Positions 5,231 through 64,000 of a stretch of 64,000 bases of DNA are shown here, in pieces; position 1 is the stretch's first letter, and every line of letters begins with the position of its first letter. Made by a program: the position numbers and the translations under genes. This DNA is from Syntrophales bacterium (lineage in GTDB: Bacteria > Desulfobacterota > Syntrophia > Syntrophales > UBA2210). Under the pieces are notes generated by a model. It was not told the origin of the DNA and did no database searches. It saw only the letters and a list, made by a program, of their open reading frames with translations. The stretch lies in assembly GCA_023228425.1 (NCBI GenBank), contig JALOBE010000002.1, forward strand, positions 83,113 through 147,112, written 5' to 3'.

Positions 5231-7909
5231 TCAGTGCGCCTCGTCCCAGTCGCCGCCGCTCCTGATATGCACTTCAAGCGGAACCTTCAGGGTGATGACA
5301 CCTTCCATTTCCTTTTTCACGAGATCCGCAAGGCTGTCTCGTTCTTCCCGGGGGACTTCAAAGACAAGTTCGTCGTGAACCTGCATGATCATACGGGCGG
5401 AGAATTCTTTTTCTTTGATGGCTCCGGCGATCCGCAGCATCGCGATCTTTATAAGATCCGCCGCGGACCCCTGGATGGGCGTGTTCACCGCCGCCCGTTC
5501 GGCAAACTGGCGGACCTGAACGATGGGGCTGTTGATCTCAGGAATTGCCCGGCGCCGCTTCATGATGGTAGTCACGAAACCGTCCTCCCTGGCCTGATCG
5601 AGCACCTTCTCTATGAAGCGACTGACCCCCTGGAAACGCTGGAAATATTCGTCAATGTAAATCTTTGCCATTTTCTGGGTTATGCCCAGTTCCCGAGCCA
5701 GCCCGAAGGGGCTCATTCCATAGATCACACCGAAGTTTATGACCTTTGCCTGCCGCCGCATCTCGTCGTTGACCAGGGCCGGGAAAACGCCGAAGACCGT
5801 GGAGGCCGTCTTTCGGTGAATGTCCTCGCCATCGGCGAAGGCCTGTATCAGCTCTTCATCCTCTGAAAGATGGGCCAGGATGCGCAGTTCGATCTGCGAA
5901 TAGTCCGACGACAGGAGTTCCCAGCCCTCGGGTGCCTTGAATGCCTGGCGGATGCGCTTCCCCTCGGTGGTTCTGATGGGAATATTCTGCAGATTCGGAT
6001 CGCTGCTGGAGAGCCGTCCCGTCGCCGTTGCCGTCTGGTTATAGGATGTGTGGATTCTCCCCGTTTCGGGATTGATAAGCTCAGGCAGGGCATCCACGTA
6101 GGTGGACCGCAGTTTGGCAAGACTCCTGTAAGCCAGGATTTCTCCAGGCAATTCATAGGAGCGGGCAAGGCGCGCGAGTACCTCCACGTCCGTTGAATAT
6201 CCCTCTTTTGTCTTGCGCCCCCGGGGCATTCCCAGCTTGTCGAAGAGTACGACCTGGAGCTGCCTGGGCGAATTGATATTGAATCGCTCTCCCGCCAGGG
6301 CATAAATCTTTTCTTCAGAGAGCCTGAGCAGTTCCCCCAGATCCTTCGACATGTCCGCCAGGAGGCCGCCATCGACAAGAACTCCGTAAAACTCCATGGC
6401 AGCCAGAACTTCCACCAAGGGCATTTCAATCTCCCTGAACAGCTCGGCCAGTCCCTCTTTCCTGATTTCGTCTTCCAACAGGGGCTTCAGGCTCGAGAGG
6501 ACGTCCACTGACCGGCAGAAACAGTCGACGGCCTTGTCCGGAGGGACATCACGGATCGATAGGGCACGGGCACCGCTCCCCGTCAGTTCCTCCGGCGACG
6601 GAAGACGACGGTTCAGGTATCGGGCGGCAAGTGACTGAAGACTGTAGTCCCTCTTCGATGCATCGAGGAGCCAGGCTGCCACCATGGTGTCAAAGTCGGC
6701 CCCCGCGAGGGTAATGCGGTTTGTCGCGAGGACAAGAAAGGCCTTCTTGAGGTCGTGACCGGTTTTGAGAATCGCGGGATCTGAAAAAACCGGCCCCAAC
6801 GATGAATAGAGGGACTCCGGCTCGAGTCCGACGCCATCTTCCTCCTTCCCGATGGGAATATACCAGGCCTCCCCCGGCCGGGCTGAAAGGGCCAGTCCGA
6901 CCGGTTCAATGCCCCGCTGAGGAATCTCCCGGCCGGTGACGAATTCAAAGGAAAAACTTCCCGCCTCCCGGAGGAGCCTCGAAAGGTCGTGAAGATGCTC
7001 TTCACGGGTAATCAGCGTATAACTACGGTCACCGGGGGCCTCTCGGCCCTGCACCTGCTGCAGCAGCGATGAAAATTCAAATTCCGAGAACAGAGCCCTC
7101 AAGGCGTCGGCGTCGAGATTTTGTCGCACCAGGTCTTCAAGTGATACATCAAGATCCAGATCGGTCCTGATGGTCGCAAGCTCCCGGCTCAAGCGCGCCT
7201 GGTCGGCATATTCCATGAGATTGCTTTTCAGTCGGCCCCCCTTCAACTCCTCAAGACGGCTCAGTATGTCATCCAGGGAACCGTAGTTACTCACCAGTTT
7301 TACGGCTGTCTTTTCTCCGATTCCCGGCACGCCCGGTATGTTGTCGGAAGAGTCTCCGGCAAGTCCCAGTACGTCGACAACCCGGTCCGGCGGAACCCCG
7401 AAGCGTTCCACTACACCATCCATGTCGTAGGATTTGTCCTTCATTGTATCCACAATGGTGACCCGGGCGGTCACCAGTTGCAGCAGGTCTTTGTCTCCGG
7501 AGGCTATCTTTACCCGGACACCCCGGGCATCGGCTGATTTTGCCAGTGTACCGATGATATCGTCGGCTTCGACACCTTCCCTCTCTATGACGGGAATGGC
7601 AAAGCCTCGCACCACATCCTTGACGCGGGGGATCTGAAGAACGAGATCATCGGGCATGACAGGCCGGTTCGCCTTGTACTGATCGTAGGCTTCATGGCGG
7701 AAGGTGGGTCCCTTCGCGTCGAACACGACGGCCATGTAGTCCGGTTCCTGTTCCCGGATCAGCTTCATCAGCATGGTGGTGAAGCCGTATATGGCGTTCG
7801 TGGGGAAGCCCTTCGAGTTTGAAAGTTCACGAATGGCATAGAAGGCCCGGTAGACATAGTTGGTGCCGTCCACGAGAACCAGAGTGGGGTAATCACGGTT
7901 ATCCGACAC
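5231..7909 (-). CDS. polA: DNA polymerase I
   Basis: 892 aa. The N-terminus is 5'-3' exonuclease-like (LVDGTNYVYRAFYA). Pol A motifs DYSQIELRILAHLS and QVHDELVFE are present. Confidence 0.97.
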   Translation of the reverse strand: MSDNRDYPTLVLVDGTNYVYRAFYAIRELSNSKGFPTNAIYGFTTMLMKLIREQEPDYMAVVFDAKGPTFRHEAYDQYKANRPVMPDDLVLQIPRVKDVVRGFAIPVIEREGVEADDIIGTLAKSADARGVRVKIASGDKDLLQLVTARVTIVDTMKDKSYDMDGVVERFGVPPDRVVDVLGLAGDSSDNIPGVPGIGEKTAVKLVSNYGSLDDILSRLEELKGGRLKSNLMEYADQARLSRELATIRTDLDLDVSLEDLVRQNLDADALRALFSEFEFSSLLQQVQGREAPGDRSYTLITREEHLHDLSRLLREAGSFSFEFVTGREIPQRGIEPVGLALSARPGEAWYIPIGKEEDGVGLEPESLYSSLGPVFSDPAILKTGHDLKKAFLVLATNRITLAGADFDTMVAAWLLDASKRDYSLQSLAARYLNRRLPSPEELTGSGARALSIRDVPPDKAVDCFCRSVDVLSSLKPLLEDEIRKEGLAELFREIEMPLVEVLAAMEFYGVLVDGGLLADMSKDLGELLRLSEEKIYALAGERFNINSPRQLQVVLFDKLGMPRGRKTKEGYSTDVEVLARLARSYELPGEILAYRSLAKLRSTYVDALPELINPETGRIHTSYNQTATATGRLSSSDPNLQNIPIRTTEGKRIRQAFKAPEGWELLSSDYSQIELRILAHLSEDEELIQAFADGEDIHRKTASTVFGVFPALVNDEMRRQAKVINFGVIYGMSPFGLARELGITQKMAKIYIDEYFQRFQGVSRFIEKVLDQAREDGFVTTIMKRRRAIPEINSPIVQVRQFAERAAVNTPIQGSAADLIKIAMLRIAGAIKEKEFSARMIMQVHDELVFEVPREERDSLADLVKKEMEGVITLKVPLEVHIRSGGDWDEAH

Positions 7910-55143: not shown

Positions 55144-55308
55144 TCACAAACGGTTCACCGGCAGTTCCGAAGGATCGTCGAACCAGCTGAAATACCTCTG
55201 CGCGCAGGTTGCGCCTGATTGGATCAGGGCCTCCTTCTTCTCGTCCGGGATATCAAAATCCGTGGTTCCCACATCGAGTGTGTCGATATACAGCGTCCGT
55301 TGCCAGTC
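55144..55308 (-). pseudogene. 3' fragment (about 55 codons) of a patatin-like phospholipase gene split by the mobile element
   Basis: DWQRTLYIDTLDVGTTDFDIPDEKKEALIQSGATCAQRYFSWFD resembles patatin C-termini. For comparison, the C-terminus of the intact paralogue 28444-29529 reads IHMIDFD...SSKLNAGWDFLTFLHREGRHAAAEWL. Upstream of codon D (55306-08) the ORF-track sequence is integrase antisense, not patatin. It joins in frame to 63346. Confidence 0.65.
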
Positions 55309-56941
55309 TTGTAAATCTATCAGTCTTATATACCGTACTTCCCCGGTAACTGCCCTTAACCTTGGGCGTATTCTCGCCGTCCCGGTTCCCTCCCTCGTCG
55401 TCATCGTTGTCCCGATAGTCGATATCGTCGCCCTTCAGGGTCCGCAGACCGATGATCTTTCCGTACAGGAAATAATCAATCGCCGAATCTCGAGCTTTAC
55501 CCCTCTTCATGACATAAATTCCGTATGGCGTCCCTTTTTCGTCCACGCCGTCAAATAACCAGTGAAGAAGGCGTTTTTTGTCCTCGAAGGTCATCTCTGC
55601 CAGTCGTTCAGGACCGCTGTAATCCTCAAGCAACTGCCGTCTGATCGTTTCGGCTTCTCGTTTCACCTGTTCGATGTCCGGAAGGGAACGGAGTTGATCC
55701 CGGTTCCCGTCCAATTCTTCAGCGACCTTGGTTTTTGCTTGTAGTAAGGCCTGCTCCTTGGCCCGGATCGTTTCCTTTGCAAGAGTTCCGGCAAGGGCCA
55801 GATCAACCAGTTTATCAAGTTCCCGGTGAATCCGCTTCAGCTCCTTTTCTCCGGTCTTGATGTTTTTTTCCAGTAAACGGATATGATTTTCATCCGGTAA
55901 AGAATCAGCTATGGCCCGTTCAAATGAAGGAACGTCCGCAATGTTCTCAAAGATTGTCCGAAAGACAGCGTTTTCAACCGGCTTCAAAGGAACGCTATTG
56001 AAGGCCTTGCGTTTTTCGTATTTCCCCGATGGATGGGTATAATACTTGAATTCCCTCCCGTTCTTGCTCACCTGTGTCTGGCCTGACAAGGATCTTCCAC
56101 AGGCTTCGCACCTGATGAAGCCCGTCAAGACGTACTTCCGGACATCCTGCCGGGACTCAATTTTATTATGGTCCAGACGTTCCCTGATCTTCTGGATGGT
56201 AGCATCGTCAAGGATTCGGGGTATGGTGTAGGTGATCGGGTCTTGATCCTTGAAAGTGATGGTCCATGTATCTCCGCATCGGTTGGTCAACATTGTGGTC
56301 AAATAGGAATAGCCTAATGGTTGACCGTACTGGGTCCGAAGGGTGTGGGACAAATCCCGCAGTGATTCTCCCTGTAAATACCGGTCTGCCGCCCATCGAA
56401 CCAGACGGGCTTTTTCCTCGTCAAGCGACCATTCCCCGGTTTCCCTGTTGAATTTTCGCCCGAAGGGGAGTTGCCCGGAAGTGGGGATGCCCTTCTTCGC
56501 CCGTGCAATCCGGTTTTCAAGCATCTGTTCCCTGATGATTTCCCGTTCCAGCTCACTCATAACGGCGAACATCCCCAGCATTGCCTTGCCGTATTTGCTT
56601 CCGAAGTCGATTCCCTCGGATATGGAGCGAAGATCAACGCCAGCCTTGGAAAGTTCATCGTGGTTATTCAGTAGTTCACGGGCATTTCTACCGAACCGGG
56701 ACAGCCTATGAATCACCAGAACCTCAAACTTGCCTTTCTGGCCATCATACAGACATTGCAGAAGAGCGTGGCGATCCTTGACCGTTCCCCCGGAGATTCC
56801 TTCATCGGCGTATATCTCTGTCAGTTGCCATCCCTGGGCTTTAACGTAGTCCTTAATGGACTGTCGTTGAGTTGACAAGGACTCCCCGCCAACCTGTTCT
56901 GCGGAACTGACCCTGACGTATCCTGCGGCTTTCTTCTTCAT
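55253..56941 (-). CDS. large serine recombinase (integrase)
   Basis: Catalytic N-terminus GYVRVSSAEQ..., resolvase-fold core (VLVIHRLSRFGRNARE), recombinase domain, zinc-ribbon FIRCEACGRSL...YYTH, and a coiled-coil region. GGGAGGA Shine-Dalgarno. The last 17 codons lie beyond attL in host DNA. Confidence 0.92.
   Translation of the reverse strand: MKKKAAGYVRVSSAEQVGGESLSTQRQSIKDYVKAQGWQLTEIYADEGISGGTVKDRHALLQCLYDGQKGKFEVLVIHRLSRFGRNARELLNNHDELSKAGVDLRSISEGIDFGSKYGKAMLGMFAVMSELEREIIREQMLENRIARAKKGIPTSGQLPFGRKFNRETGEWSLDEEKARLVRWAADRYLQGESLRDLSHTLRTQYGQPLGYSYLTTMLTNRCGDTWTITFKDQDPITYTIPRILDDATIQKIRERLDHNKIESRQDVRKYVLTGFIRCEACGRSLSGQTQVSKNGREFKYYTHPSGKYEKRKAFNSVPLKPVENAVFRTIFENIADVPSFERAIADSLPDENHIRLLEKNIKTGEKELKRIHRELDKLVDLALAGTLAKETIRAKEQALLQAKTKVAEELDGNRDQLRSLPDIEQVKREAETIRRQLLEDYSGPERLAEMTFEDKKRLLHWLFDGVDEKGTPYGIYVMKRGKARDSAIDYFLYGKIIGLRTLKGDDIDYRDNDDDEGGNRDGENTPKVKGSYRGSTVYKTDRFTRLATDAVYRHTRCGNHGF
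55291..55332. other. putative attL (host arm CAGCGTCCGTTGCCAG | TC | element arm TTGTAAATCTATCAGTCTTATATA)
   Basis: Patatin coding similarity stops at 55308. The TC at 55307-08 is shared with the right junction. The element arm contains GTCTTATATA, inverted relative to TATATAAGAC at the other end. Confidence 0.55.
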
Positions 56942-56982
56942 TGGCCGTTTCCTCCCTATACTTTACCCTAACTGACAAAAGA

Positions 56983-57016
56983 AAATCGATTCTAGGCCCG
57001 TAAAACCCCTTTCAGC
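56983..57016 (-). repeat. motif copy A (CTAG-containing, promoter-like): minus strand CTGAAA-N15-TAGAAT
   Basis: AAATCGATTCTAGGCCCGTAAAACCCCTTTCAGC. Closely similar to the cores at 58142-58175 (inverted), 60467-60501 and 63029-63060. It lies 40-75 nt upstream of the integrase ATG. Confidence 0.7.
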
Positions 57017-57017
57017 G

Positions 57018-57224
57018 TTACTCTACATCGACGAATATCAGCGTCGTCCTAAGAAGTGTATCATAATCTCCGCTCGTGGCCTGTGCAATATAATCATCAA
57101 TGAACGCCTCATCGTAGCCAGCGTCCCGCAATGCCTTGGACACCTTGCCGAGAATGTAATAGGCATTCCCGTCTTCGCCGATCAGCTTAACCTTGACTTT
57201 CGTTATGGGTCGTGATGTACTCAT
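57018..57224 (-). CDS. small hypothetical protein (68 aa)
   Basis: GGAAGGAG Shine-Dalgarno before the ATG at 57224. The sequence KLIGEDGNAYYILGKVSKALRDAGY...SGDYDTLL resembles small proteins I recall from phage genomes, but I cannot name the family. Confidence 0.65.
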   Translation of the reverse strand: MSTSRPITKVKVKLIGEDGNAYYILGKVSKALRDAGYDEAFIDDYIAQATSGDYDTLLRTTLIFVDVE

Positions 57225-57292
57225 GCCGTAAACTCCTTCCCTTGGTTGAAGGATTTGCATCAGTCCCGGTATGGGTGCCAGCCTCGCCGGGA

Positions 57293-57985
57293 CTACTTTT
57301 TTGGCTTCGCCTTGCTTGTACGGGTGATTTGTTCACATCTATATAGCGTCCATGGTTGACCATCCATTGTTTTTACGCCTTCAGCGTTCAGAATATCGGC
57401 TATCTGTTGCCATGTTCTGCGTCTGCCATCCTTTGTCTTACGCCGCAATGCTCTGATCTTCCGAAGTACCGCTTTTCCTTCTTCCGTCTCCCGGTATCCC
57501 TTCCGGCCTCCGCACTTTACCCCTGTGGCCCGGATTCTTTCCCGGCTAGCAATGAGCTTTTTGACGAGTAGATTCTTTTCCAGTTCGGCAAAGATGCCTT
57601 GAATCTGGACAAGGGCTTTTCGCATAGGATCGGCCATGATCGCTTCCGTAACATTTTCCTCTGTTCTGGCTGATAGTAATTCAATGTCCTTGCTGGCCAG
57701 ATAGATAAGTAACGTTTCTTGGACGTGGTATTCCCTGGCAAGGCGGTCAAGCCCTTCAACAATAATCGTCCGTACTCCATCTTTCAGAATTTCTGAAACC
57801 ATCTCCTGAAATGCTGGACGGTCTTCCTCTCCCTTGGTCCCTGACACATCATCCTTGAAAACGGCGACAACTTCAATCTTGCACTTCTTTGCGTAGTCCC
57901 TGATTGCCTTTTCTTGTCGTGGGAAGCCATCACCCTTGACTTGTCCCGATCCGCTAACTCTTAAATATCCGTAGGCCTTCTTCAC
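57293..57985 (-). CDS. small serine recombinase (resolvase/invertase family) with C-terminal HTH
   Basis: AAGGAGGTGA Shine-Dalgarno before the GTG at 57985. Catalytic YGYLRVSGSGQ, RTIIVEGLDRLARE, and C-terminal ...TWQQIADILNAEGVKT (HTH). Confidence 0.88.
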   Translation of the reverse strand: MKKAYGYLRVSGSGQVKGDGFPRQEKAIRDYAKKCKIEVVAVFKDDVSGTKGEEDRPAFQEMVSEILKDGVRTIIVEGLDRLAREYHVQETLLIYLASKDIELLSARTEENVTEAIMADPMRKALVQIQGIFAELEKNLLVKKLIASRERIRATGVKCGGRKGYRETEEGKAVLRKIRALRRKTKDGRRRTWQQIADILNAEGVKTMDGQPWTLYRCEQITRTSKAKPKK

Positions 57986-58136
57986 TTTATCACCTCCTTT
58001 CATTAGTAATATATAATACTTGAATGAAAAAATCAAGCTTTTTTAATGGATTCTTAAAAATAAAAATTAATATATGATTCCCTAATGAGCCACAGTCCTG
58101 CATCACGGGACAGGAAGGGTCTACAAAGGCTCAAAA

Positions 58137-58219
58137 CAAGGAGTTGAGAAGGGGTTTATGGGTCTAGAATCGATTTACTCAATGGAGTCCATATAAAGAC
58201 ATGCCTTGGCATTAAAACG
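58137..58219 (+). repeat. left arm of the 83-bp inverted repeat (contains motif copy B, TTGAGA-N15-TAGAAT reading rightward)
   Basis: It is the reverse complement of 60424-60506 with a single mismatch (aligned by eye). Similarity decays over about 8 more bp on the inner side. Confidence 0.9.
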
Positions 58220-58243
58220 TCGTATAGAAGCGGAAAACAGCGT

Positions 58244-58885
58244 TTAACCCGGGATGAGTCTAGCCTTGAGCGGCTGAACTCGCAATAGATTGGACGGTTC
58301 ATCCTCATCAACCGGGCTCGGTTCTTCTGAATCAATAGCCGGATCAGTTACACCGGGGGAGATAAAAGGAACGGCTTTCCGCTCCCGTAGAACTTCAATG
58401 GACGGATCAGCTTTATGAATCTTACTGACCAGTCTTTCAAACATAGCAAGTTCTCGATCATTGAGCATGGAAAGGTCAGAAGTATTGTCCTGCTCGATCT
58501 GCTTTTGCTCCTGCTCCAATTCCATGATTTTGATCTGGTGCAGGGTAAGGGCAATTTTACTCAACAATTCGTAACTGCCCCGTGCTTCGGCTATCGCCTT
58601 TAATTCAAGCCTCGGATTATCCTTTTCCTCGGCCTTGTTCATGATCCGCTTGGTACGGCGTAGAAGTTCATCAATCTCTCCTAACAGGTCCATTGACCGG
58701 TGAAGCTCCTTCTGCGCCATAGCAGTTGCCAGCTGGCGGGTAATGTGATTGTCCCGGTGACGGTACAGGGCATCCTCCGACACACCATACTCACGTGATA
58801 TACTGGCGATGCTCTTTCCTTGCAGGATTTTCCTGTCCAGCTCTATTCTCTTGTCATGATTACAGACTCGACATGCTTGGGCCAT
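58244..58885 (-). CDS. HTH DNA-binding protein (phage small-terminase-like or regulator-like N-terminus), acidic C-terminal tail
   Basis: AAGGAGGA Shine-Dalgarno 7 nt before the ATG at 58885. N-terminus CRVCNHDKRIELDRKILQGKSIASISREYGVSEDALYRHRDNH is a CxxC plus HTH arrangement I recall from phage TerS-annotated and regulator proteins. Coiled-coil middle region. The functional call is weak. Confidence 0.7.
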   Translation of the reverse strand: MAQACRVCNHDKRIELDRKILQGKSIASISREYGVSEDALYRHRDNHITRQLATAMAQKELHRSMDLLGEIDELLRRTKRIMNKAEEKDNPRLELKAIAEARGSYELLSKIALTLHQIKIMELEQEQKQIEQDNTSDLSMLNDRELAMFERLVSKIHKADPSIEVLRERKAVPFISPGVTDPAIDSEEPSPVDEDEPSNLLRVQPLKARLIPG

Positions 58886-58918
58886 TGCCAATTCCTCCTT
58901 TATGGTCCGACCTTCCGG

Positions 58919-59217
58919 CCTTGATTAATGGGAAAAATTCTCCATTTATTAAAAATTAATAATTTTCCATCTATCTGCTATCTTCTTCTATACGTCCATC
59001 ATTTATGATGGACGCTTAGAATATCTTAAAATATTTTATTCTCCATCTTAATACTCTTATATATATCCTTGGTTTTTAATAGGGCAATCCTTGATTTTTA
59101 ATAGAACGATCCTTGATTTTTAATAGAACGATCCTTGATTTTTAATAGGGCAATCCTTGATTTTTAATAGACGAATATTCGTTCGAAAACTAAAGGGATT
59201 ACCCTTCGAAAACTAAA
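58919..59217. other. candidate replication origin: degenerate iteron, AT-rich tract with a 20-bp hairpin, 5 iterons, and a 2x13-bp repeat
   Basis: CCTTGATTAATGGG (58919-32). AT-rich 58933-59065 with TTCTCCAT twice and the palindrome GTCCATCAT-TT-ATGATGGAC (58994-59013). Iterons at 59066-59175. TTCGAAAACTAAA at 59182-94 and 59205-17. Confidence 0.7.
59066..59175. repeat. 5 tandem 22-bp iterons (TCCTTGATTTTTAATAG-NNCNA)
   Basis: Units begin at 59066, 59088, 59110, 59132 and 59154. The core TCCTTG(A/G)TTTTTAATAG is invariant and the last 5 nt vary. The exact 22-bp phase equals two helical turns. Confidence 0.92.
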
Positions 59218-59285
59218 CGGCTATTAAGGAGACCAAAGATAAGGATAACAAAAATGGGGATTTCCCATATATGGGTTTTCCCCTA

Positions 59286-60146
59286 TCATCTTATCCTCGG
59301 TTTCAGATAGACCTTGAACCATTTGTCAATTCTTTCCACGAGCCGGTATTTCTCCAATTGCTTCATTGGAGCTTTGATATTTGTTACGTTGACCCCTGCG
59401 TGTCGTCCCAATTCCGCAAGGGGTATTGTCACAACGTCCCATTTACGGGTACGGATATACTCGTCATGGGAAGTCATCCACTCAAACCCGTTGTCGGTTT
59501 CTACGTCACGGTAAAGTTCGTAGTCCTGAACAGCCACGCTCCGCATTGCCAGATATAGCGCCTTCGCCCGGGGTTTCAGTTTCGCCCATATCCCACTGTC
59601 GATAAGGCAAGCAAAAAATAAAAAGTAATCACCTTTCCAATGGGGGATCATATTCCTGCGGATAAATCCGGCCCGATAGAGGTAGAAATGGCGGGTGCCT
59701 TCTGATGTCATCTTCACTTCCAATAGGGGAACCGCTGTACCTTTCCCGTTCTCGTCTGTTGTTTTTAGTTTATACTCACCGTCGACAAGTTCTTTAATCC
59801 CCTTTTGAACAGTGCCCCCTCCGATCCCGGCCATCTTCCCGATGTTCTCTTGTGATATTTGGAACCAATCGTTATGCTCGAAATTTGCCTGTGAACACAT
59901 GACCGGATAAACGGCGATTGACGCTTTGCTCCATTGGTCCCCAAATAGACCGGGACCGAATATCTTTGGAAAGAAAAAATGTCTGTTCATATTCACCTCG
60001 GCCTTTGGAAACTCGAAGATAGTTGTCTTGTCATATTTCTCCGCGAACAATTCTTTTTGCTGTTGTCGCCGTTGCTCTTTTTGCTTCTTGGCCTCAAGTG
60101 CTACCTTGCCCCGAAATGGGGAGCTTCTTGACTGTTCCATGTCCAT
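59286..60146 (-). CDS. putative iteron-binding replication initiator (two winged-helix-like segments)
   Basis: It sits immediately upstream of the iteron array. Two HTH/wHTH-like segments are present: IGKMAGIGGGTVQKGIKELVD and LAELGRHAGVNVTNIKAPMKQLEKYRLVERI. The ORF track starts at a TTG (60176); the ATG at 60146 is preferred. No family confirmed. Confidence 0.6.
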   Translation of the reverse strand: MDMEQSRSSPFRGKVALEAKKQKEQRRQQQKELFAEKYDKTTIFEFPKAEVNMNRHFFFPKIFGPGLFGDQWSKASIAVYPVMCSQANFEHNDWFQISQENIGKMAGIGGGTVQKGIKELVDGEYKLKTTDENGKGTAVPLLEVKMTSEGTRHFYLYRAGFIRRNMIPHWKGDYFLFFACLIDSGIWAKLKPRAKALYLAMRSVAVQDYELYRDVETDNGFEWMTSHDEYIRTRKWDVVTIPLAELGRHAGVNVTNIKAPMKQLEKYRLVERIDKWFKVYLKPRIR

Positions 60147-60423
60147 TGACCTCGCTTTCCTTGATCGACCTCGCAAGTAAATAATGGCCGGGGGCTGGAC
60201 AAGTGCGAGGTCGTGACCTGTCTTTCGGGAGCTACCCTAGCCCCCAGCATGTCTTTACCAATATGGAAACTGATTAACATCATAATTTCACTATATTTAT
60301 ACGCCAAATTTTCCTAGCGTTCCCCTGTCGAAAGAATGCCTGGGGCAGGTCGGTTGGGGAAACCAACTTTTCGGTTGCAAGCCCAGCCCCCGGCAATAAA
60401 ACTATGTTTTTCAAGCTATGCGC

Positions 60424-60506
60424 CGTTTTAATGCCAAGGCATGTCTTTATATGGACTCCATTGAGTAAATCGATTCTAGACCCATAAACCCCCTCTCAAC
60501 TCCTTG
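60424..60506 (-). repeat. right arm of the 83-bp inverted repeat (contains motif copy C, TTGAGA-N15-TAGAAT reading leftward toward rep)
   Basis: Reverse complement of 58137-58219 with 1 mismatch (C at 60493 versus T in the left arm). Confidence 0.9.
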
Positions 60507-60709
60507 AAAAGGAGAAGGAAAAGGGACGTGCGGTCCGGCAAAAGGAGACGACAGGCGTGGGATGGATCATCCCCCCACCAAATACAAAACCCGGACCGCA
60601 CGTCCAGTAGCGGCAGGGAAAAATTCCCCGGCGTAGGAAGGAGGCGGCAGGGGAGAAAATTGACAAAACCCCACCATAACCCCGCCGGTTGAAAACCCTG
60701 CCGATTCAT

Positions 60710-61534
60710 TTACTGTACCTTTGCCCAGTTGAATTTTTCCACGTCGGCGGGCCAGCCCGGAAGATCCTCTTTCCGGATCACCCCGCCAGTAATGGGAGGC
60801 TTCATAGGGACGGGCAGACCTCGTTCTCGTGCGGCTTGTTGCGCCCGTGCAAGTCGTTCCGCTCGTTTCTTTTTCTGTTGCGCATGAAAGGTTGGAATTA
60901 CTTGTTCCCGGTAGTCGATGACATCCATCCCATGATATGGGCTTCGCTCGTCACGAATTCGGAGAACGCCTGAAGGATCGGGGCTGACCATCTGCCCATC
61001 TAATTCGGTGATTACTTTGTCCAGCCTTCCGGAATATGAATCCCCACGAGGACCGTATTGAAGGACCGCTTTGTCATCGGTCCTGCTTTCGGCTTCGATT
61101 TTTTGGGCGAGTAATTCTTCCAGCTTTTTGACCTCGTCTTTGAGAATATCCTGTTCTGCTTCCAGCTTCATCAATTCACTGTACATTTCATCATTCATCG
61201 TCGTCAGCGGGCGCATACCCCGGTTAATTCGGTGTTGATTGAGATGCTCAAATCTTTCGTTGAGTTCATCAATTTGCATCTTTTTTTTCAGCTGATGGCT
61301 TGGCGTGGCTGTTCCAAGCCTGTCCGTTTTGAACGTTCCATCAGCATCGCCCCGGTACTCTGACAGCAATTGTTCCAAGCCCCGGCGCGTGGTCATGCTG
61401 TGTAAGTGCCCGAAGTTCCACGCCGTGGATGATGCCCCACCGGGATTGAGGATAAAACTGGACTGTGCCAGTCGGTCAAATCTTCTGTCATATTCGGGGT
61501 TTATGCCTATTCTGTATCGTCTTCGTCCTGCCAT
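60710..61534 (-). CDS. hypothetical protein with central coiled-coil (274 aa)
   Basis: GAAGGAGGT Shine-Dalgarno. Heptad-rich middle region (MYSELMKLEAEQDILKDEVKKLEELLAQKIEAE). No family recognised. Confidence 0.75.
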   Translation of the reverse strand: MAGRRRYRIGINPEYDRRFDRLAQSSFILNPGGASSTAWNFGHLHSMTTRRGLEQLLSEYRGDADGTFKTDRLGTATPSHQLKKKMQIDELNERFEHLNQHRINRGMRPLTTMNDEMYSELMKLEAEQDILKDEVKKLEELLAQKIEAESRTDDKAVLQYGPRGDSYSGRLDKVITELDGQMVSPDPSGVLRIRDERSPYHGMDVIDYREQVIPTFHAQQKKKRAERLARAQQAARERGLPVPMKPPITGGVIRKEDLPGWPADVEKFNWAKVQ

Positions 61535-61547
61535 CTTCCTACCTCCT

Positions 61548-62288
61548 TCAATTCAAGCCGGTTGGCATCAAAACGTTTGGATTGTCATTGCTCGGTCGTT
61601 GGGGTTCTTGGTCTTTCCCGCCCATGCCGGTTGGTAACAGCAGATTGCGGCGATCGGCTTCTTCCCGAAGTGCCGCCTGACAAGGTGCTTTCTTTTCCTC
61701 TTCTTCCTCTGCGACTCGAACGCCCAGGGGGTACAAATGTTTTTCCATTCCTGCTCCTTCCTTTTGATAGTTCCCGATTCCTGTCCCGACGCAAGCCGGG
61801 TCTTGATCGGGCAGAAGTGCCAGATGGTCGGCCTGAACGATTTCTGTCACGATGGCCGAAAAGTAAGTGTCCTCCAGCCAACCTGAGACAAGAATATCCT
61901 CGGTAAAAACCCCAAGACTGACATTGCGGGCCCGTTGGCATAGCGATAAGTCCGCCGTGTTGATGGGGATTTCGATTGTCCCAATAACCCCCTTCCGCCG
62001 TTGGTCGTACTTCGTACCCACCAGAACGCCTCGGCTGAACTTCTGTTGAACCTGAGCGCTGTAGTTGATAGATACGAAATGCCCTTCCGAATTTTCTGGA
62101 TGTCGCATTGTAACCGGGATATTGCTGAAGTCCTTTGCATGACGTTCCAAAACTCCGATGGGCCACAATACAGGCCCATTGCTCCCTGCATGAATACCGG
62201 GAACCGCTAGCAAGACCGGAGCTGTCAACTTCCCGTTCTTGACTGTCCACGGCGCAACGGCGTTACAGTTTAGGTGTTTCAGTTTCAC
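61548..62288 (-). CDS. phage-type protein resembling DUF2213 (head scaffold/maturation-associated)
   Basis: The GTG start overlaps the XRE stop (GTGA), with an AAGGAGGA Shine-Dalgarno. PVTMRHP, NVSLGVF and IVQADHLALLPDQDPACVG match my recollection of DUF2213 motifs (..T..HP.., ElS.GY, NH(L/V)AL(V/L)..GR.G). The C-terminal tail is acidic and Pro-rich. Confidence 0.7.
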   Translation of the reverse strand: MKLKHLNCNAVAPWTVKNGKLTAPVLLAVPGIHAGSNGPVLWPIGVLERHAKDFSNIPVTMRHPENSEGHFVSINYSAQVQQKFSRGVLVGTKYDQRRKGVIGTIEIPINTADLSLCQRARNVSLGVFTEDILVSGWLEDTYFSAIVTEIVQADHLALLPDQDPACVGTGIGNYQKEGAGMEKHLYPLGVRVAEEEEEKKAPCQAALREEADRRNLLLPTGMGGKDQEPQRPSNDNPNVLMPTGLN

Positions 62289-62758
62289 TCGGATTCCTCC
62301 TTCGTTTTAGTCCACCGCCTTTCCAATATAGCGATGATTTTATCCTTCTCTTTCTCTGTAAAACCTTGCGTTGCCTCGTCAACTTGCTGAGCAATCTTTT
62401 CGATGCTGGGTCGGTCATACCCGGCAAGGACCAGAAGCTGAACAAAAGCCCCTTGCCGATACAGTCGAGCGACATGGACCAGAGCCGCATCAATGGGATA
62501 ACGCGCATCAAAAAGATTCTGGACAGCCTGCAACGTGACATTGGCAAGATCGGGGGGGGCGGCTTCCCATTCGATTTCGCCCACCGCATCAAGGACCTGT
62601 TCAATCTTCATCAGCGGAAGTAAATCGAGCAGACGGGTTTTGCCTTGTTCAAGCATAGATAAATTCGACTGCTGGAACCCTGTCTTTTCAGCAAGCTCCT
62701 GTTGGGTCATTCCGGCCCGTTTTCTTGCTTGCCTCATTGTCAATTTCCGCATCTTCAT
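62285..62758 (-). CDS. XRE-family HTH transcriptional regulator
   Basis: MRQARKRAGMTQQELAEKTGFQQSNLSMLEQGK is a classic Cro/C1-type HTH. It is the first gene at the right end of the element. Confidence 0.88.
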   Translation of the reverse strand: MKMRKLTMRQARKRAGMTQQELAEKTGFQQSNLSMLEQGKTRLLDLLPLMKIEQVLDAVGEIEWEAAPPDLANVTLQAVQNLFDARYPIDAALVHVARLYRQGAFVQLLVLAGYDRPSIEKIAQQVDEATQGFTEKEKDKIIAILERRWTKTKEESE

Positions 62759-63028
62759 TCCTCCGGTTCGTTATTATTATTTAATATATATTATTAACGA
62801 ACAAAAGTCTAGAAAAAAGTCATTTTCTGACGAATTATTTAGGTCTAATTTTATAACCTCAAAGAATCATTGATAATAATGAAATACAGAATTTATAAAA
62901 AGAATGGGTTTTTATATTTATAGCAAATACATGATTGTGAAAAATGCCCAATCAGAAACAACCGAATTAGCGCCCTAGAAACGCCGATCCGTTTCAGGCA
63001 GGTAAATATATGCCCCAGGTAAAGAAAA

Positions 63029-63060
63029 CCGTTTCTAGACAATAAAACCCCCTTTCAACG
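63029..63060 (-). repeat. motif copy D (minus strand TTGAAA-N15-TAGAAA)
   Basis: CCGTTTCTAGACAATAAAACCCCCTTTCAACG. It lies in the AT-rich 585-bp leader region upstream of the XRE gene. Further CTAG-containing fragments are at 62807, 62975 and 63283. Confidence 0.6.
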
Positions 63061-63316
63061 GTATGTTTTTGATAAAGATAAACGCTGATCCTTTGTCTAT
63101 ATTGTAGGGATTTTGACAGGTTCGTTTAAGTTGGGCTTGTGATTGTTTAGAAGTGGCGGATATTGCAGAGGATAAAAATTGCTGTCAGGTGGGTGGATTC
63201 TCCGGGGGCTTTGTATTATCTTTCTTCAATAGTGACAAACCCGCCTCCGATGATTGACCGGGGCGGGGCGTGGTGAAGGGGAAGGCCTAGACAGCGGCCT
63301 TGACCTTCCAATTGAC

Positions 63317-63362
63317 TATATAAGACCTATTTTCTTGCTTTCATCACTGTGAAGGTGCTGGT
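63317..63362. other. putative attR (element arm TATATAAGACCTATTTTCTTGCTTTCA | TC | host arm ACTGTGAAGGTGCTGG)
   Basis: The patatin frame acquires an element-encoded tail ...ESKKIGLI-stop left of 63343. The TC at 63344-45 matches the TC at 55307-08. Confidence 0.55.
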
Positions 63363-64000
63363 TCTCCTGCACCCGGAGGACCGTCTTTACGAGTGCCCCG
63401 GCAAAGTCCGAGAATTTCTTGATGGCCCGACCGGACGGAAGCTCGTCGTAGCGGTAAAGGGCGATTTCCTCCCTCGTGTCCAGACGCATGCCCAGGGTCT
63501 GCCGATTATACACATAGGGACTGCGACCGGGCCGGAGGGCGAGAAAGCGTTCGTTCTCCCGGGCGTAGTAGGACGTCTGCCTGGCCGCCGCCCCCTCATC
63601 CTCCATATCGATGTACCGTTGGCGGTCAAATAGTTTTACGGGATAATTGAGTACCATGCCGCCGTCCACATAGACATCGTTGCGTTCTCCCCGGCGGACG
63701 GCGGCGAAAAAGAGGGGGATGGACATGCTGATCCGCAGGGCGGTCGCCAGGGGCATGTCACCCTGTCGTTCCCGGGAGAATACTTCGGCATAGCCCGTGC
63801 TAAGATTGGTTCCTGTCACGTAAAGATCGGGACCACCCTGTTTCGCCAGGTCATCAAAGGTCGCCCGGGCGTTTCCCAGCCGGTCGGCAATGATCGAGCC
63901 GATCCAGGTGGAAAAGAAATCCCCTCTGTACCACCCGAATTCCCGGGCAAGTCGGCGGACATCGCGAATAACCCCGAAGGAATCGTCCATGAAGTTTTTG
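63346..64000 (-). pseudogene. 5' portion of the split patatin-like phospholipase gene (continues beyond the right window edge)
   Basis: The frame is open to nt 64000. Catalytic-Asp region VYVDGGMVLNYPV and MSIPLFFAAV are typical of patatin. The GxSxG nucleophile should lie off-window. Confidence 0.7.

Follow-up and report, generated by a model that had tools for sequence, protein, structure and literature searches.

The stretch of DNA analysed here (hereafter "the window") comprises 64,000 nucleotides of a Syntrophales metagenome-assembled genome (MAG; GenBank assembly GCA_023228425.1, contig JALOBE010000002.1, positions 83,113 to 147,112 of the forward strand), and part of its last 9 kb is occupied by a small integrated element with sharp edges. 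Between about 55,100 and 63,400, windowed GC content falls from about 0.60 outside to 0.38-0.56 inside. On the minus strand, host sequence ending in ...CACCTTCACAGTGATGA gives way to element DNA beginning AAGCAAGAAAATAGG..., and 8 kb further on ...GATTTACAAGA is followed by CTGGCAACGGACG.... Aligned on a shared dinucleotide, the first junction reads ...CACAGTGATGA followed by AAGCAAG, with GA at 63342-63341, and the second reads ...TTTACAAGA followed by CTGGCAACGG, with GA at 55308-55307. The two junction sequences together define an element of 8,036 bp at 55307-63342. An earlier reading, made from the letters of the window and their open reading frames (the sequence-only reading), had placed an island at 55309-63343; composition, junctions and the restoration of a host reading frame all bear out the island, but its exact ends are those given here. 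Five features describe the insertion:

55307..63342, minus strand: whole integrated element, 8,036 bp including the crossover GA at both ends, defined by the GC drop, the junctions and excision in silico.
63341..64000, minus strand: 5' part of a patatin-like phospholipase gene (Pfam Patatin, E = 5e-11), extending past the window end; attL at 63341-63342.
55144..55306, minus strand: what remains of the patatin-like gene at its 3' end, downstream of attR.
55309..55332, minus strand: attP half-site P, consisting of TATATAAGAC and a spacer of 14 nt up to the crossover GA at 55308-55307.
63317..63340, minus strand: attP half-site P', in which a spacer of 14 nt and then GTCTTATATA come after the crossover GA at 63342-63341.

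When the flanks are fused in silico at the common GA, they form a single patatin-like open reading frame (ORF) of 270 codons (...HLHSDDWQRTLYIDTLDV... and ...ENQHLHSDDWQRTLYIDTLDVGTTDF...), in which the frame resumes as ...SDDWQRTLYIDTLDVGTTDF... within the 3' remnant. Because the fused flanks yield one continuous ORF whose 5' part matches Pfam Patatin, the element interrupts a patatin-like phospholipase gene, and the same gene is called as 297 aa in an independent assembly. Joining the ends of the element rebuilds an attP of the form TATATAAGAC-N14-GA-N14-GTCTTATATA, the 10-bp inverted arms of which are perfect and equidistant from the GA crossover. At about 50 bp, with dyad symmetry, a 2-bp crossover and restoration of attB upon excision, this site has the features of a large serine recombinase (LSR) target; its core reads ...GATTTACAAGAAAGCAAGAAAATAGG..., and the empty attB reads ...CACAGTGATGACTGGCAACGG.... 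Thus, insertion was the work of an LSR, which recombined attP with a site in the patatin-like gene by crossing over at GA; the sole tRNA gene of the window lies far from the element.

The attP site sits within the 3' end of the element's own LSR gene. Because this ORF extends beyond the crossover, the host supplies its last 18 codons in the integrated form, and in the circle they are replaced by a different set of 20 codons. In a relative (L123, at about 5790-5800), the LSR ORF likewise enters the 5' end or start of a host gene, there fabI-like. Members of this clade seem to share an attP located within the 3' end of int, with targets that differ among them. A defined 50-bp attP, its attB and a compact LSR also constitute a candidate pair for genome engineering.

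Within these borders lie eight genes, given here in the order of their transcription:

62285..62752, minus strand: XRE-family regulator, 155 aa (HTH_3, E = 1.5e-10; PHROG repressor families).
61548..62288, minus strand: 246-aa protein, a short member of the DUF2213 scaffold/prohead-protease family by profile homology, with three LLPxG peptides in its tail.
60710..61534, minus strand: 274-aa coiled-coil protein of an orphan family specific to the element family (no database match).
59286..60140, minus strand: Rep, winged-helix replication initiator, 284 aa (HTH_36 at 22.7 bits against a cut-off of 25, hence sub-threshold).
58244..58885, minus strand: 213-aa zinc-helix-turn-helix (Zn-HTH) protein, candidate small terminase (TerS), with a zinc-HTH and a long helical hairpin; homologues lie beside the large terminase (TerL) gene.
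57293..57985, minus strand: small serine recombinase, 230 aa, a catalytic domain with a short LSR-type tail (Pfam Resolvase, 3.6e-27; phrog_95, phrog_125).
57018..57224, minus strand: 68-aa protein (phrog_1933, E = 8e-20), its start preceded by a Shine-Dalgarno site.
55253..56941, minus strand: LSR (integrase), 562 aa (Pfam Resolvase 7.8e-36, Zn_ribbon_recom 1e-5, Recombinase 1.3e-3; phrog_95 integrase 4.5e-85).

Every one of the eight genes is on the minus strand, with GGAGG-type Shine-Dalgarno sites before the likely starts, as the sequence-only reading had described, and an independent 264-kb assembly has the same order with sizes of 155, 246, 274, 284, 213, 230, 68 and 562 aa. The XRE gene heads an operon with the genes for the 246-aa and 274-aa proteins, its stop codon overlapping the start of the former. 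Direct family scans identify the XRE regulator and both serine recombinases, and the gene guesses made earlier from the letters (an XRE regulator, a head-assembly protein, a coiled-coil protein, a winged-helix Rep, a TerS-like Zn-HTH protein and two serine recombinases) turn out to be essentially right. None of the eight proteins matches a portal, TerL, capsid, tail, lysis, relaxase or type IV secretion family in Pfam, PHROGs or NCBIfam, in agreement with the absences listed in that reading, and scans with Pfam and NCBIfam detect no partition, mobilisation or toxin-antitoxin genes in the element. In what follows, the families of the 246-aa, 213-aa and 274-aa proteins (and the gene slots that they occupy) are labelled A1, A2 and A3, and the related loci that were fetched carry L numbers.

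We interpret this locus as an active 8.0-kb integrative mini-replicon of phage descent, its nature as an active integrative replicon being well supported. Beyond this, we favour, with slightly better than even confidence, the view that the element is a helper-dependent phage satellite with a plasmid-like episomal state, belonging to an undescribed family. The satellite reading is founded on a cargo that is of phage type (a short scaffold/protease with multiplied peptides, a protein in the TerS slot, Rep, a regulator and a small protein) together with the absence of plasmid and conjugation functions.

If the element were instead what is left of a decayed prophage, or a set of genes brought together by chance, the phage relatives of several of its genes would be accounted for. 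Its borders are exact, its LSR is intact, its attP is perfectly symmetric, and its ORFs are all intact and preceded by Shine-Dalgarno sites. Moreover, independent assemblies show all eight genes in this order, as do other elements at 30-85% identity, and one relative is circular. As such, we regard this explanation as scarcely credible.

The affinity of the 246-aa protein emerges at the level of profiles. Scanned directly, it matches nothing in Pfam (DUF2213 included, even at E <= 10), PHROGs or NCBIfam, which is the weak spot of the DUF2213-like label proposed in the sequence-only reading; but the label stands at the profile level, where 39 of 47 sampled relatives match Pfam DUF2213. One of its six close homologues carries a precomputed DUF2213 annotation, and a profile built from these six retrieves 7,040 proteins at E <= 1e-3, typically 470-570 aa long with the domain at the N-terminus. 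Relatives match PHROG "head maturation protease" families, and homologues in cultured Salmonella, Klebsiella and Pseudomonas phages are annotated as "prohead core protein serine protease". In the phage at L017, the A1-family gene follows those for the portal and a head-morphogenesis protein and precedes a small gene and one with a PHROG major-head-protein/virion-structural match. The solved chain nearest to the family profile is the scaffolding protein gp24 of phage Pa193, in which the helical residues 286-326 bind the capsid interior (PMC11456595).

Residues H63, S124 and H155, which are invariant in 154 of 154 aligned sequences and kept in the window protein, form a predicted catalytic triad; G35, G38 and P64 are also invariant in the family and kept. 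At the C-terminal end, a peptide of the form E-x-[LIVM]LLP-x-G-[VI] occurs within the last 20 residues of 39 of the 104 long phage homologues, where chance would give about 0.006 matches per protein, and the tail of the 246-aa protein contains three copies (HLYPLGV, LLLPTGM and VLMPTGL). In a circular relative (L085/L086, described below), the A1 slot is filled by a 166-aa protein that has no N-terminal domain and is made up solely of four copies of the peptide. Since the domain was lost there and the peptides were kept, the element family conserves the terminal peptide of the phage scaffold, which is presumably the piece that docks into the procapsid. The four peptides of this relative (encoded at 75-464 in L085 and 1495-1995 in L086) read EILMPLQV, DMLLPTNS, DLLLPTNS and EILHPLGH.

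The 246-aa protein thus has in common with phage DUF2213 proteins, such as Pa193 gp24 of Pseudomonas, both the N-terminal domain with its His, Ser and His and the C-terminal [LIVM]LLPxG. The phage proteins, however, are 350-570 aa long, are encoded between the portal and major capsid genes and, in the case of gp24, have a capsid-binding helical body, whereas in the element's protein of 246 aa the scaffold body of about 250 aa is absent, the terminal peptide is present three times, and there is no capsid gene nearby.

The gene for the 274-aa protein always adjoins the A1-slot gene, and in one case (P0053) the two are read through as an A1-A3 protein. The family consists of eight members with 20 invariant columns. 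The window protein has no match in Pfam, PHROGs, NCBIfam or the PDB (including a profile search of the latter), and scans of viral, metagenome and genome collections with the family returned nothing. We considered that it might be the missing C-terminal body of the phage scaffold, and rejected this split-scaffold idea because the 274-aa profile does not match the long phage scaffolds.

The 213-aa protein belongs to a family of 224 members at E <= 1e-3, typically 160-187 aa long, with invariant C7, C10, H12, H45 and H49. In all five phage contexts examined, the A2 homologue stands first in the packaging module. It follows a RusA gene both in Thermus phage Riverbug and in the metagenomic phage group L092-94, where it overlaps the start codon of TerL; in two further metagenomic groups, L095/96 and L090, and in the Methanoculleus virus L4768, a methylase lies between it and TerL, with one or two further small genes in the last two. 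The AlphaFold2 model (mean predicted local distance difference test, pLDDT, 78) consists of a zinc-HTH followed by a long helical hairpin, an architecture compatible with TerS. We judge the protein to be most likely a TerS, the alternative being an activator of late genes resembling the Delta protein of P4.

The replication module, together with an RNA motif in the leader of rep, comprises two further features:

59065..59171, minus strand: iterons, presumed origin of replication; five 22-bp direct repeats CTATTAAAAATCAAGGATyGyy (Tandem Repeats Finder: period 22, 4.9 copies, 90% matches).
60323..60393, minus strand: Rfam int-alpA RNA motif (RF02996), matched over its full length in the rep leader, 36.1 bits against a gathering score of 35.8.

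Immediately 3' of the end of rep, and with an AT-rich stretch after them, these iterons fall within the 500 bp of the element that are richest in AT (GC 0.376); the sequence-only reading had likewise put an origin here. An array with a period of about 22 bp (21-23 bp, 2.6-4.9 copies) occupies the same position 3' of rep in 10 of the 14 related loci examined, and its sequence varies from locus to locus alongside Rep, as expected of cognate iterons. Among 42 Rep homologues, most carry a precomputed HTH_36 (PF13730) and a few RepA_N, RepL or Phage_rep_O. Neither Pfam scans nor the annotations of homologues reveal a primase or helicase domain in Rep, a profile search of the PDB finds no relative, and tblastn finds no match to Rep in 72,556 PLSDB plasmids or in cultured phages. 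Homologues in IMG/VR are situated within phage replication modules, where the genes run helicase, sigma factor, primase, Rep, DnaD/O-like protein and DnaB. At the edge of the origin, an extended palindrome (59242-59297) overlaps the stop codon of rep, and the GC-richer spacer between the 274-aa gene and rep contains, in 60524-60605, a perfect 15-bp inverted repeat, GGACGTGCGGTCCGG ... CCGGACCGCACGTCC.

The int-alpA RNA also occurs just 5' of the replication gene in L001 (11831-11901, 45.7 bits) and L087 (2333-2414, 36.5 bits). As a link to satellite P4 the motif was rejected, P4 itself being without it.

These data also bear on the possibility that the element is mobilisable, borrowing a conjugative system through an unrecognised origin of transfer (oriT). 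The element is small, integrative and without transfer genes of its own, and its intergenic inverted repeats and palindromes could conceal an oriT. However, neither a relaxase nor a coupling or Mob-type protein is encoded in it; the HTH_36 match marks Rep as a winged-helix initiator, with no match to a relaxase or HUH-endonuclease family; and the cargo is of the head and packaging type. On these grounds, mobilisation by conjugation is very unlikely.

The Rep-iteron-A2 part of the element is set apart by a pair of long inverted repeats, the core of which recurs elsewhere in the element:

58137..58227, plus strand: 91-nt inverted repeat, arm 1, 97% complementary to arm 2, with the 32-nt motif opposite to the genes.
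60416..60506, minus strand: 91-nt inverted repeat, arm 2, upstream of rep, with the 32-nt motif in forward orientation.
56983..57015, minus strand: 32-nt motif copy, forward, upstream of the LSR gene.
58145-58176, inverted relative to the genes: 32-nt motif copy within arm 1.
60467-60499, forward: 32-nt motif copy within arm 2, upstream of rep.
63026..63058, minus strand: 32-nt motif copy, forward, upstream of the XRE operon.

The 91-nt arms bracket exactly the cassette of Rep, iterons and 213-aa gene and adjoin the small serine recombinase gene, and in L001 arms of 42 nt (93% complementary) bracket a non-homologous replication gene in the same way. The core of each arm is the 32-nt motif, TGArAnGGGGnTTT...CTAGAAnCrrTTT, which is promoter-like (-35 TTGAGA, N15, -10 TAGAAT) and is present in four copies, one per major intergenic region, three of them forward and one inverted. 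The inverted repeat may mark an invertible or exchangeable cassette, or it may supply convergent promoters; the motif copies may be shared promoter or operator sites, or crossover sites of the small recombinase. We sought a flipped Rep-ori-A2 cassette in other assemblies and found only the same orientation, or contigs ending inside the repeats. Short contigs from other samples with only A2 or only rep (L144, L145, L146 and L149) are 99.9-100% identical where aligned, and those bearing A2 stop within the iterons and an inverted-repeat arm; they resemble assembly breaks at repeats and are uninformative on inversion. L144 possibly has one iteron fewer. In L097, the motif copy upstream of rep is flipped.

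The small serine recombinase itself is 26% identical to the N-terminus of the LSR, and its sequence relatives in the PDB are TnpX, Gin and Sin. The 68-aa protein has tblastn matches in 186 phage records, mostly of Mycobacterium, Listeria, Microbacterium and Campylobacter phages. It was rejected as a directionality factor of the LSR because its homologues, widespread in Listeria, Mycobacterium and Campylobacter phages, show no association with integrases in these contexts.

HMM scans of the fetched loci show that the gene order recurs in Thermodesulfobacteriota and Bacteroidota. The full order (XRE, A1, A3, Rep, iterons, A2, small recombinase and LSR) is found in L097, and in L001 the order is the same except that the rep slot is taken by a non-homologous protein of 446 aa (phrog_4756); the XRE-A1-A3 order is present in both of these and in L142 and L143. 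Parts of the arrangement occur in a Bacteroidota MAG and a Bacteroidota single-amplified genome, and a contig of an Auribacterota MAG has the Rep-iterons-A2 part only. The same gene order is carried by L085, the ends of which overlap by 127 bp and which is thus a circle of 7,751 bp; L086 is a circular permutation of the same molecule. Such a circle could represent a plasmid, the product of excision or a genome packaged in permuted form; the copy in the window is integrated.

A related, LSR-bounded element of about 10 kb lies beside Planctomycete-type host genes in L002 (575-10605; also L003). Its cargo includes a small serine recombinase, TerL (phrog_2, 1.7e-27), a short homologue (185 aa) of the scaffold/protease and a protein of phrog_4756, the last being common to L002/L003 and the replication slot of L001.

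A circular relative could equally be expected if the element were an integrative iteron plasmid with no helper, that is, a small circle that parks in the chromosome by means of its LSR and has its multimers resolved by the small recombinase, the phage-like genes being baggage or serving maintenance and regulation. Rep and iterons whose position is kept across relatives, the 7,751-bp circle and the two serine recombinases all accord with such a plasmid, as do the failure to find element-type genes in IMG/VR and the lack of a helper phage in the window. Several observations speak against it. Neither Rep nor the 213-aa protein has a tblastn match among the 72,556 PLSDB plasmids; partition, mobilisation and toxin-antitoxin genes are missing; five of the six non-recombinase genes have phage relatives; and the docking peptide of a phage scaffold, which has no obvious use for a plasmid, has been kept and even multiplied. 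We consider a helper-free plasmid the main rival explanation of the element, possible though rather unlikely, and one that in part coincides with the satellite reading, given the 7.75-kb circle of a relative. The preference for a phage satellite over an integrated iteron plasmid, already expressed in the sequence-only reading, is upheld by the phage-type cargo, but that circle keeps the plasmid alternative in place. That reading had also named three kinds of evidence that would speak against a satellite, namely, a lack of phage homology in the 246-aa and 213-aa proteins, homology to a plasmid backbone, and occurrence of the genes inside a complete prophage. Both proteins have phage relatives, no backbone homology was found in PLSDB, and the genes make up an exactly bounded 8-kb element rather than part of a prophage, so that none of the three speaks against a satellite.

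If the element is a satellite, its genes suggest how it might operate. As long as no helper phage infects or is induced, the XRE protein would silence the shared promoter-like motifs. After excision, Rep would fire the iteron origin and amplify the circle, and the Zn-HTH protein would replace the small terminase of the helper, such that the helper's TerL packages satellite DNA. The 246-aa protein would be a cut-down scaffold/prohead protease that consists of the N-terminal His/Ser/His domain and three LLPxG docking peptides, the body of about 250 aa being gone. Together with its coiled-coil partner of 274 aa, it could enter or compete for the procapsids of the helper, and assembly would then be redirected to capsids suited to an 8-kb genome or the heads of the helper would be sabotaged. 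The small serine recombinase might resolve multimers or packaged concatemers, or rearrange the replication cassette within the 91-nt inverted repeat.

Sabotage could also be the whole purpose, as in an anti-phage decoy island in which the short scaffold/protease and its partner poison head assembly and the phage is not used for transfer. Multiplied LLPxG peptides would suit a competitive inhibitor of scaffold-capsid binding, the His/Ser/His residues are kept, and in known satellites interference goes together with hijacking (PMC9618062). Pure defence, however, would need neither a candidate TerS nor an autonomous origin, and the search for defence systems with PADLOC produced only generic HTH matches, to the XRE protein. 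Interference does not preclude satellite transfer, and an island devoted to defence alone appears quite unlikely.

Extending the satellite reading to the relatives would make the element the first recognised member of a family of satellites of anaerobic Thermodesulfobacteriota, Bacteroidota and Auribacterota, each of which would hijack the heads of its helper with a decoy derived from the helper's scaffold/protease (the N-domain with multiplied LLPxG, or the peptides alone). Each would also have a TerS of its own and a replication cassette that can be swapped, with inverted recombination sites on either side. This generalisation is tentative and less likely than not.

A number of observations weigh against a helper-dependent satellite, or against parts of the mechanism proposed for it. 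There is no helper phage in the window, nor are there phage genes outside the element there, and helper dependence and packaging are deduced from the genes alone. Rep, the iterons, the resolvase-type recombinase and the circular relative fit an integrative plasmid equally well. A1 is absent from L126-L128 and so is not universal in the element family. In 80 phage loci with a scaffold/protease gene, no A2 homologue lies within 10 kb of it, so that the two candidate hijacking proteins do not trace to one known phage lineage. The AlphaFold2 model of the 246-aa protein, made from a six-sequence alignment, is poor (pLDDT 59), and Foldseek finds no fold match for it in the PDB. For the 213-aa protein, matches to TerS PHROGs are weak and mostly driven by the HTH (3 of 50 members, with E above 2e-3), and Foldseek of its model returns nothing from the PDB at E <= 0.001 and only uncharacterised phage proteins from BFVD; gene position is the sole basis of its assignment as a TerS. 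In addition, A2 and A3 of the element type were not found in IMG/VR.

Well-characterised satellites come mostly from a few cultured bacterial groups, in which mechanisms of capsid hijacking are known in detail. If the element is indeed a satellite, this lifestyle extends to strictly anaerobic, uncultured lineages of digesters and sediments, and it would offer a simple and testable principle of hijacking, in which a shortened scaffold/protease acts as an enzyme-like head with extra capsid-docking peptides. If it is only an integrative plasmid, it adds modestly to the small mobile elements on record.

By membership, the element is not a phage-inducible chromosomal island (PICI), a P4-like satellite or a capsid-forming PICI; it works most like Vibrio cholerae's PICI-like elements (PLEs) and the module-3 virion-encapsidated integrative mobile elements (VEIMEs) of the sea. 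Its likeness to PICIs, including the Staphylococcus aureus pathogenicity islands (SaPIs), is functional only and consists of an integrase, a regulator, an autonomous rep-ori, a candidate TerS, a putative capsid-assembly protein and the absence of structural and lysis genes. SaPIs rely on CpmB, an alternative internal scaffold, or on Ccm, which is homologous to capsid protein. PICIs have a tyrosine integrase, a regulator of the Stl or AlpA type beside int, a primase-helicase replicase and a length of 10-15 kb, none of which is found in the element. The integrase does lie at one end with an att site, as in PICIs, but it is an LSR at the attR end; no AlpA or Stl-like regulator was matched, and the sole regulator, XRE, is at the opposite end, co-oriented and heading an operon with two head-type genes. 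The 246-aa and 213-aa proteins match no PICI packaging or capsid family (terS, ppi, cpm, rpp) and no TerS model. For these reasons (no AlpA or Stl beside int, no primase-helicase, and 8 kb in place of 10-15 kb), the layout is not the published organisation of PICIs, as the letters had been taken to show. Capsid-forming PICIs have their own major capsid, portal and head-tail connector, and the element has a scaffold/protease homologue only.

Satellite P4 alternates between an integrated state and that of a multicopy plasmid, depends on a helper for packaging and encodes the zinc-binding Delta, which activates helper late genes. Like the element, it has repeat-based origins (according to the P4 annotation); unlike the element, it has a tyrosine integrase and no int-alpA RNA, and its core genes psu, sid, delta, alpha, epsilon and alpA have no PHROG, Pfam or NCBIfam match in the element. 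With iteron-type theta plasmids the element shares Rep, adjacent tandem iterons and an AT-rich region (GC 0.376), but the known plasmid backbone (Rep family, par, mob) was not found in it.

PLEs possess an iteron initiator of the RepA_N type with an adjacent origin, and they excise, replicate and are packaged into the capsids of their helper, ICP1. They bring their own means of capsid remodelling and interfere with the packaging motor. In comparison with their RepA_N-kind initiator, the Rep of the element reaches only a sub-threshold HTH_36. By description, PLEs also differ in being about 18 kb long, confined to Vibrio and equipped with an external scaffold, TcaP, in place of an internal scaffold/protease homologue. 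One point of resemblance is the integrase, since that of the V. cholerae PLE is likewise an LSR (PMC9618062), and PLEs serve as the reference for satellites with a serine recombinase.

VEIMEs were defined as concatemers found inside virions, and their hosts are marine aerobes (Cyanobacteria, Verrucomicrobia and Pelagibacter; Eppley et al. 2022, PMC9618062). Module-3 VEIMEs have serine recombinases in 91% of cases and plasmid-like replication initiation genes, and some subgroups have two recombinases; other modules include TerS homologues, or serine proteases that the authors tied to procapsid maturation (PMC9618062). Given the serine integrases of PLEs and VEIMEs, satellites of this kind were already known, and the novelty that the sequence-only reading had claimed for a serine-integrase satellite does not hold. 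As described, VEIMEs are like the element in being small and integrative, in their serine recombinases and plasmid-like replication, and in that most of their other genes are orphans. They are unlike it in that they were recovered as virion concatemers, whereas the element is known from its genes alone, and in that their hosts are marine aerobes and not anaerobic Syntrophales and Bacteroidota. A truncated DUF2213 scaffold/protease with a multiplied docking peptide is not described for VEIMEs in the main text of PMC9618062. In relation to these systems, what appears to be new is the host range, the particular gene set of the family and the proposed decoy-scaffold mechanism.

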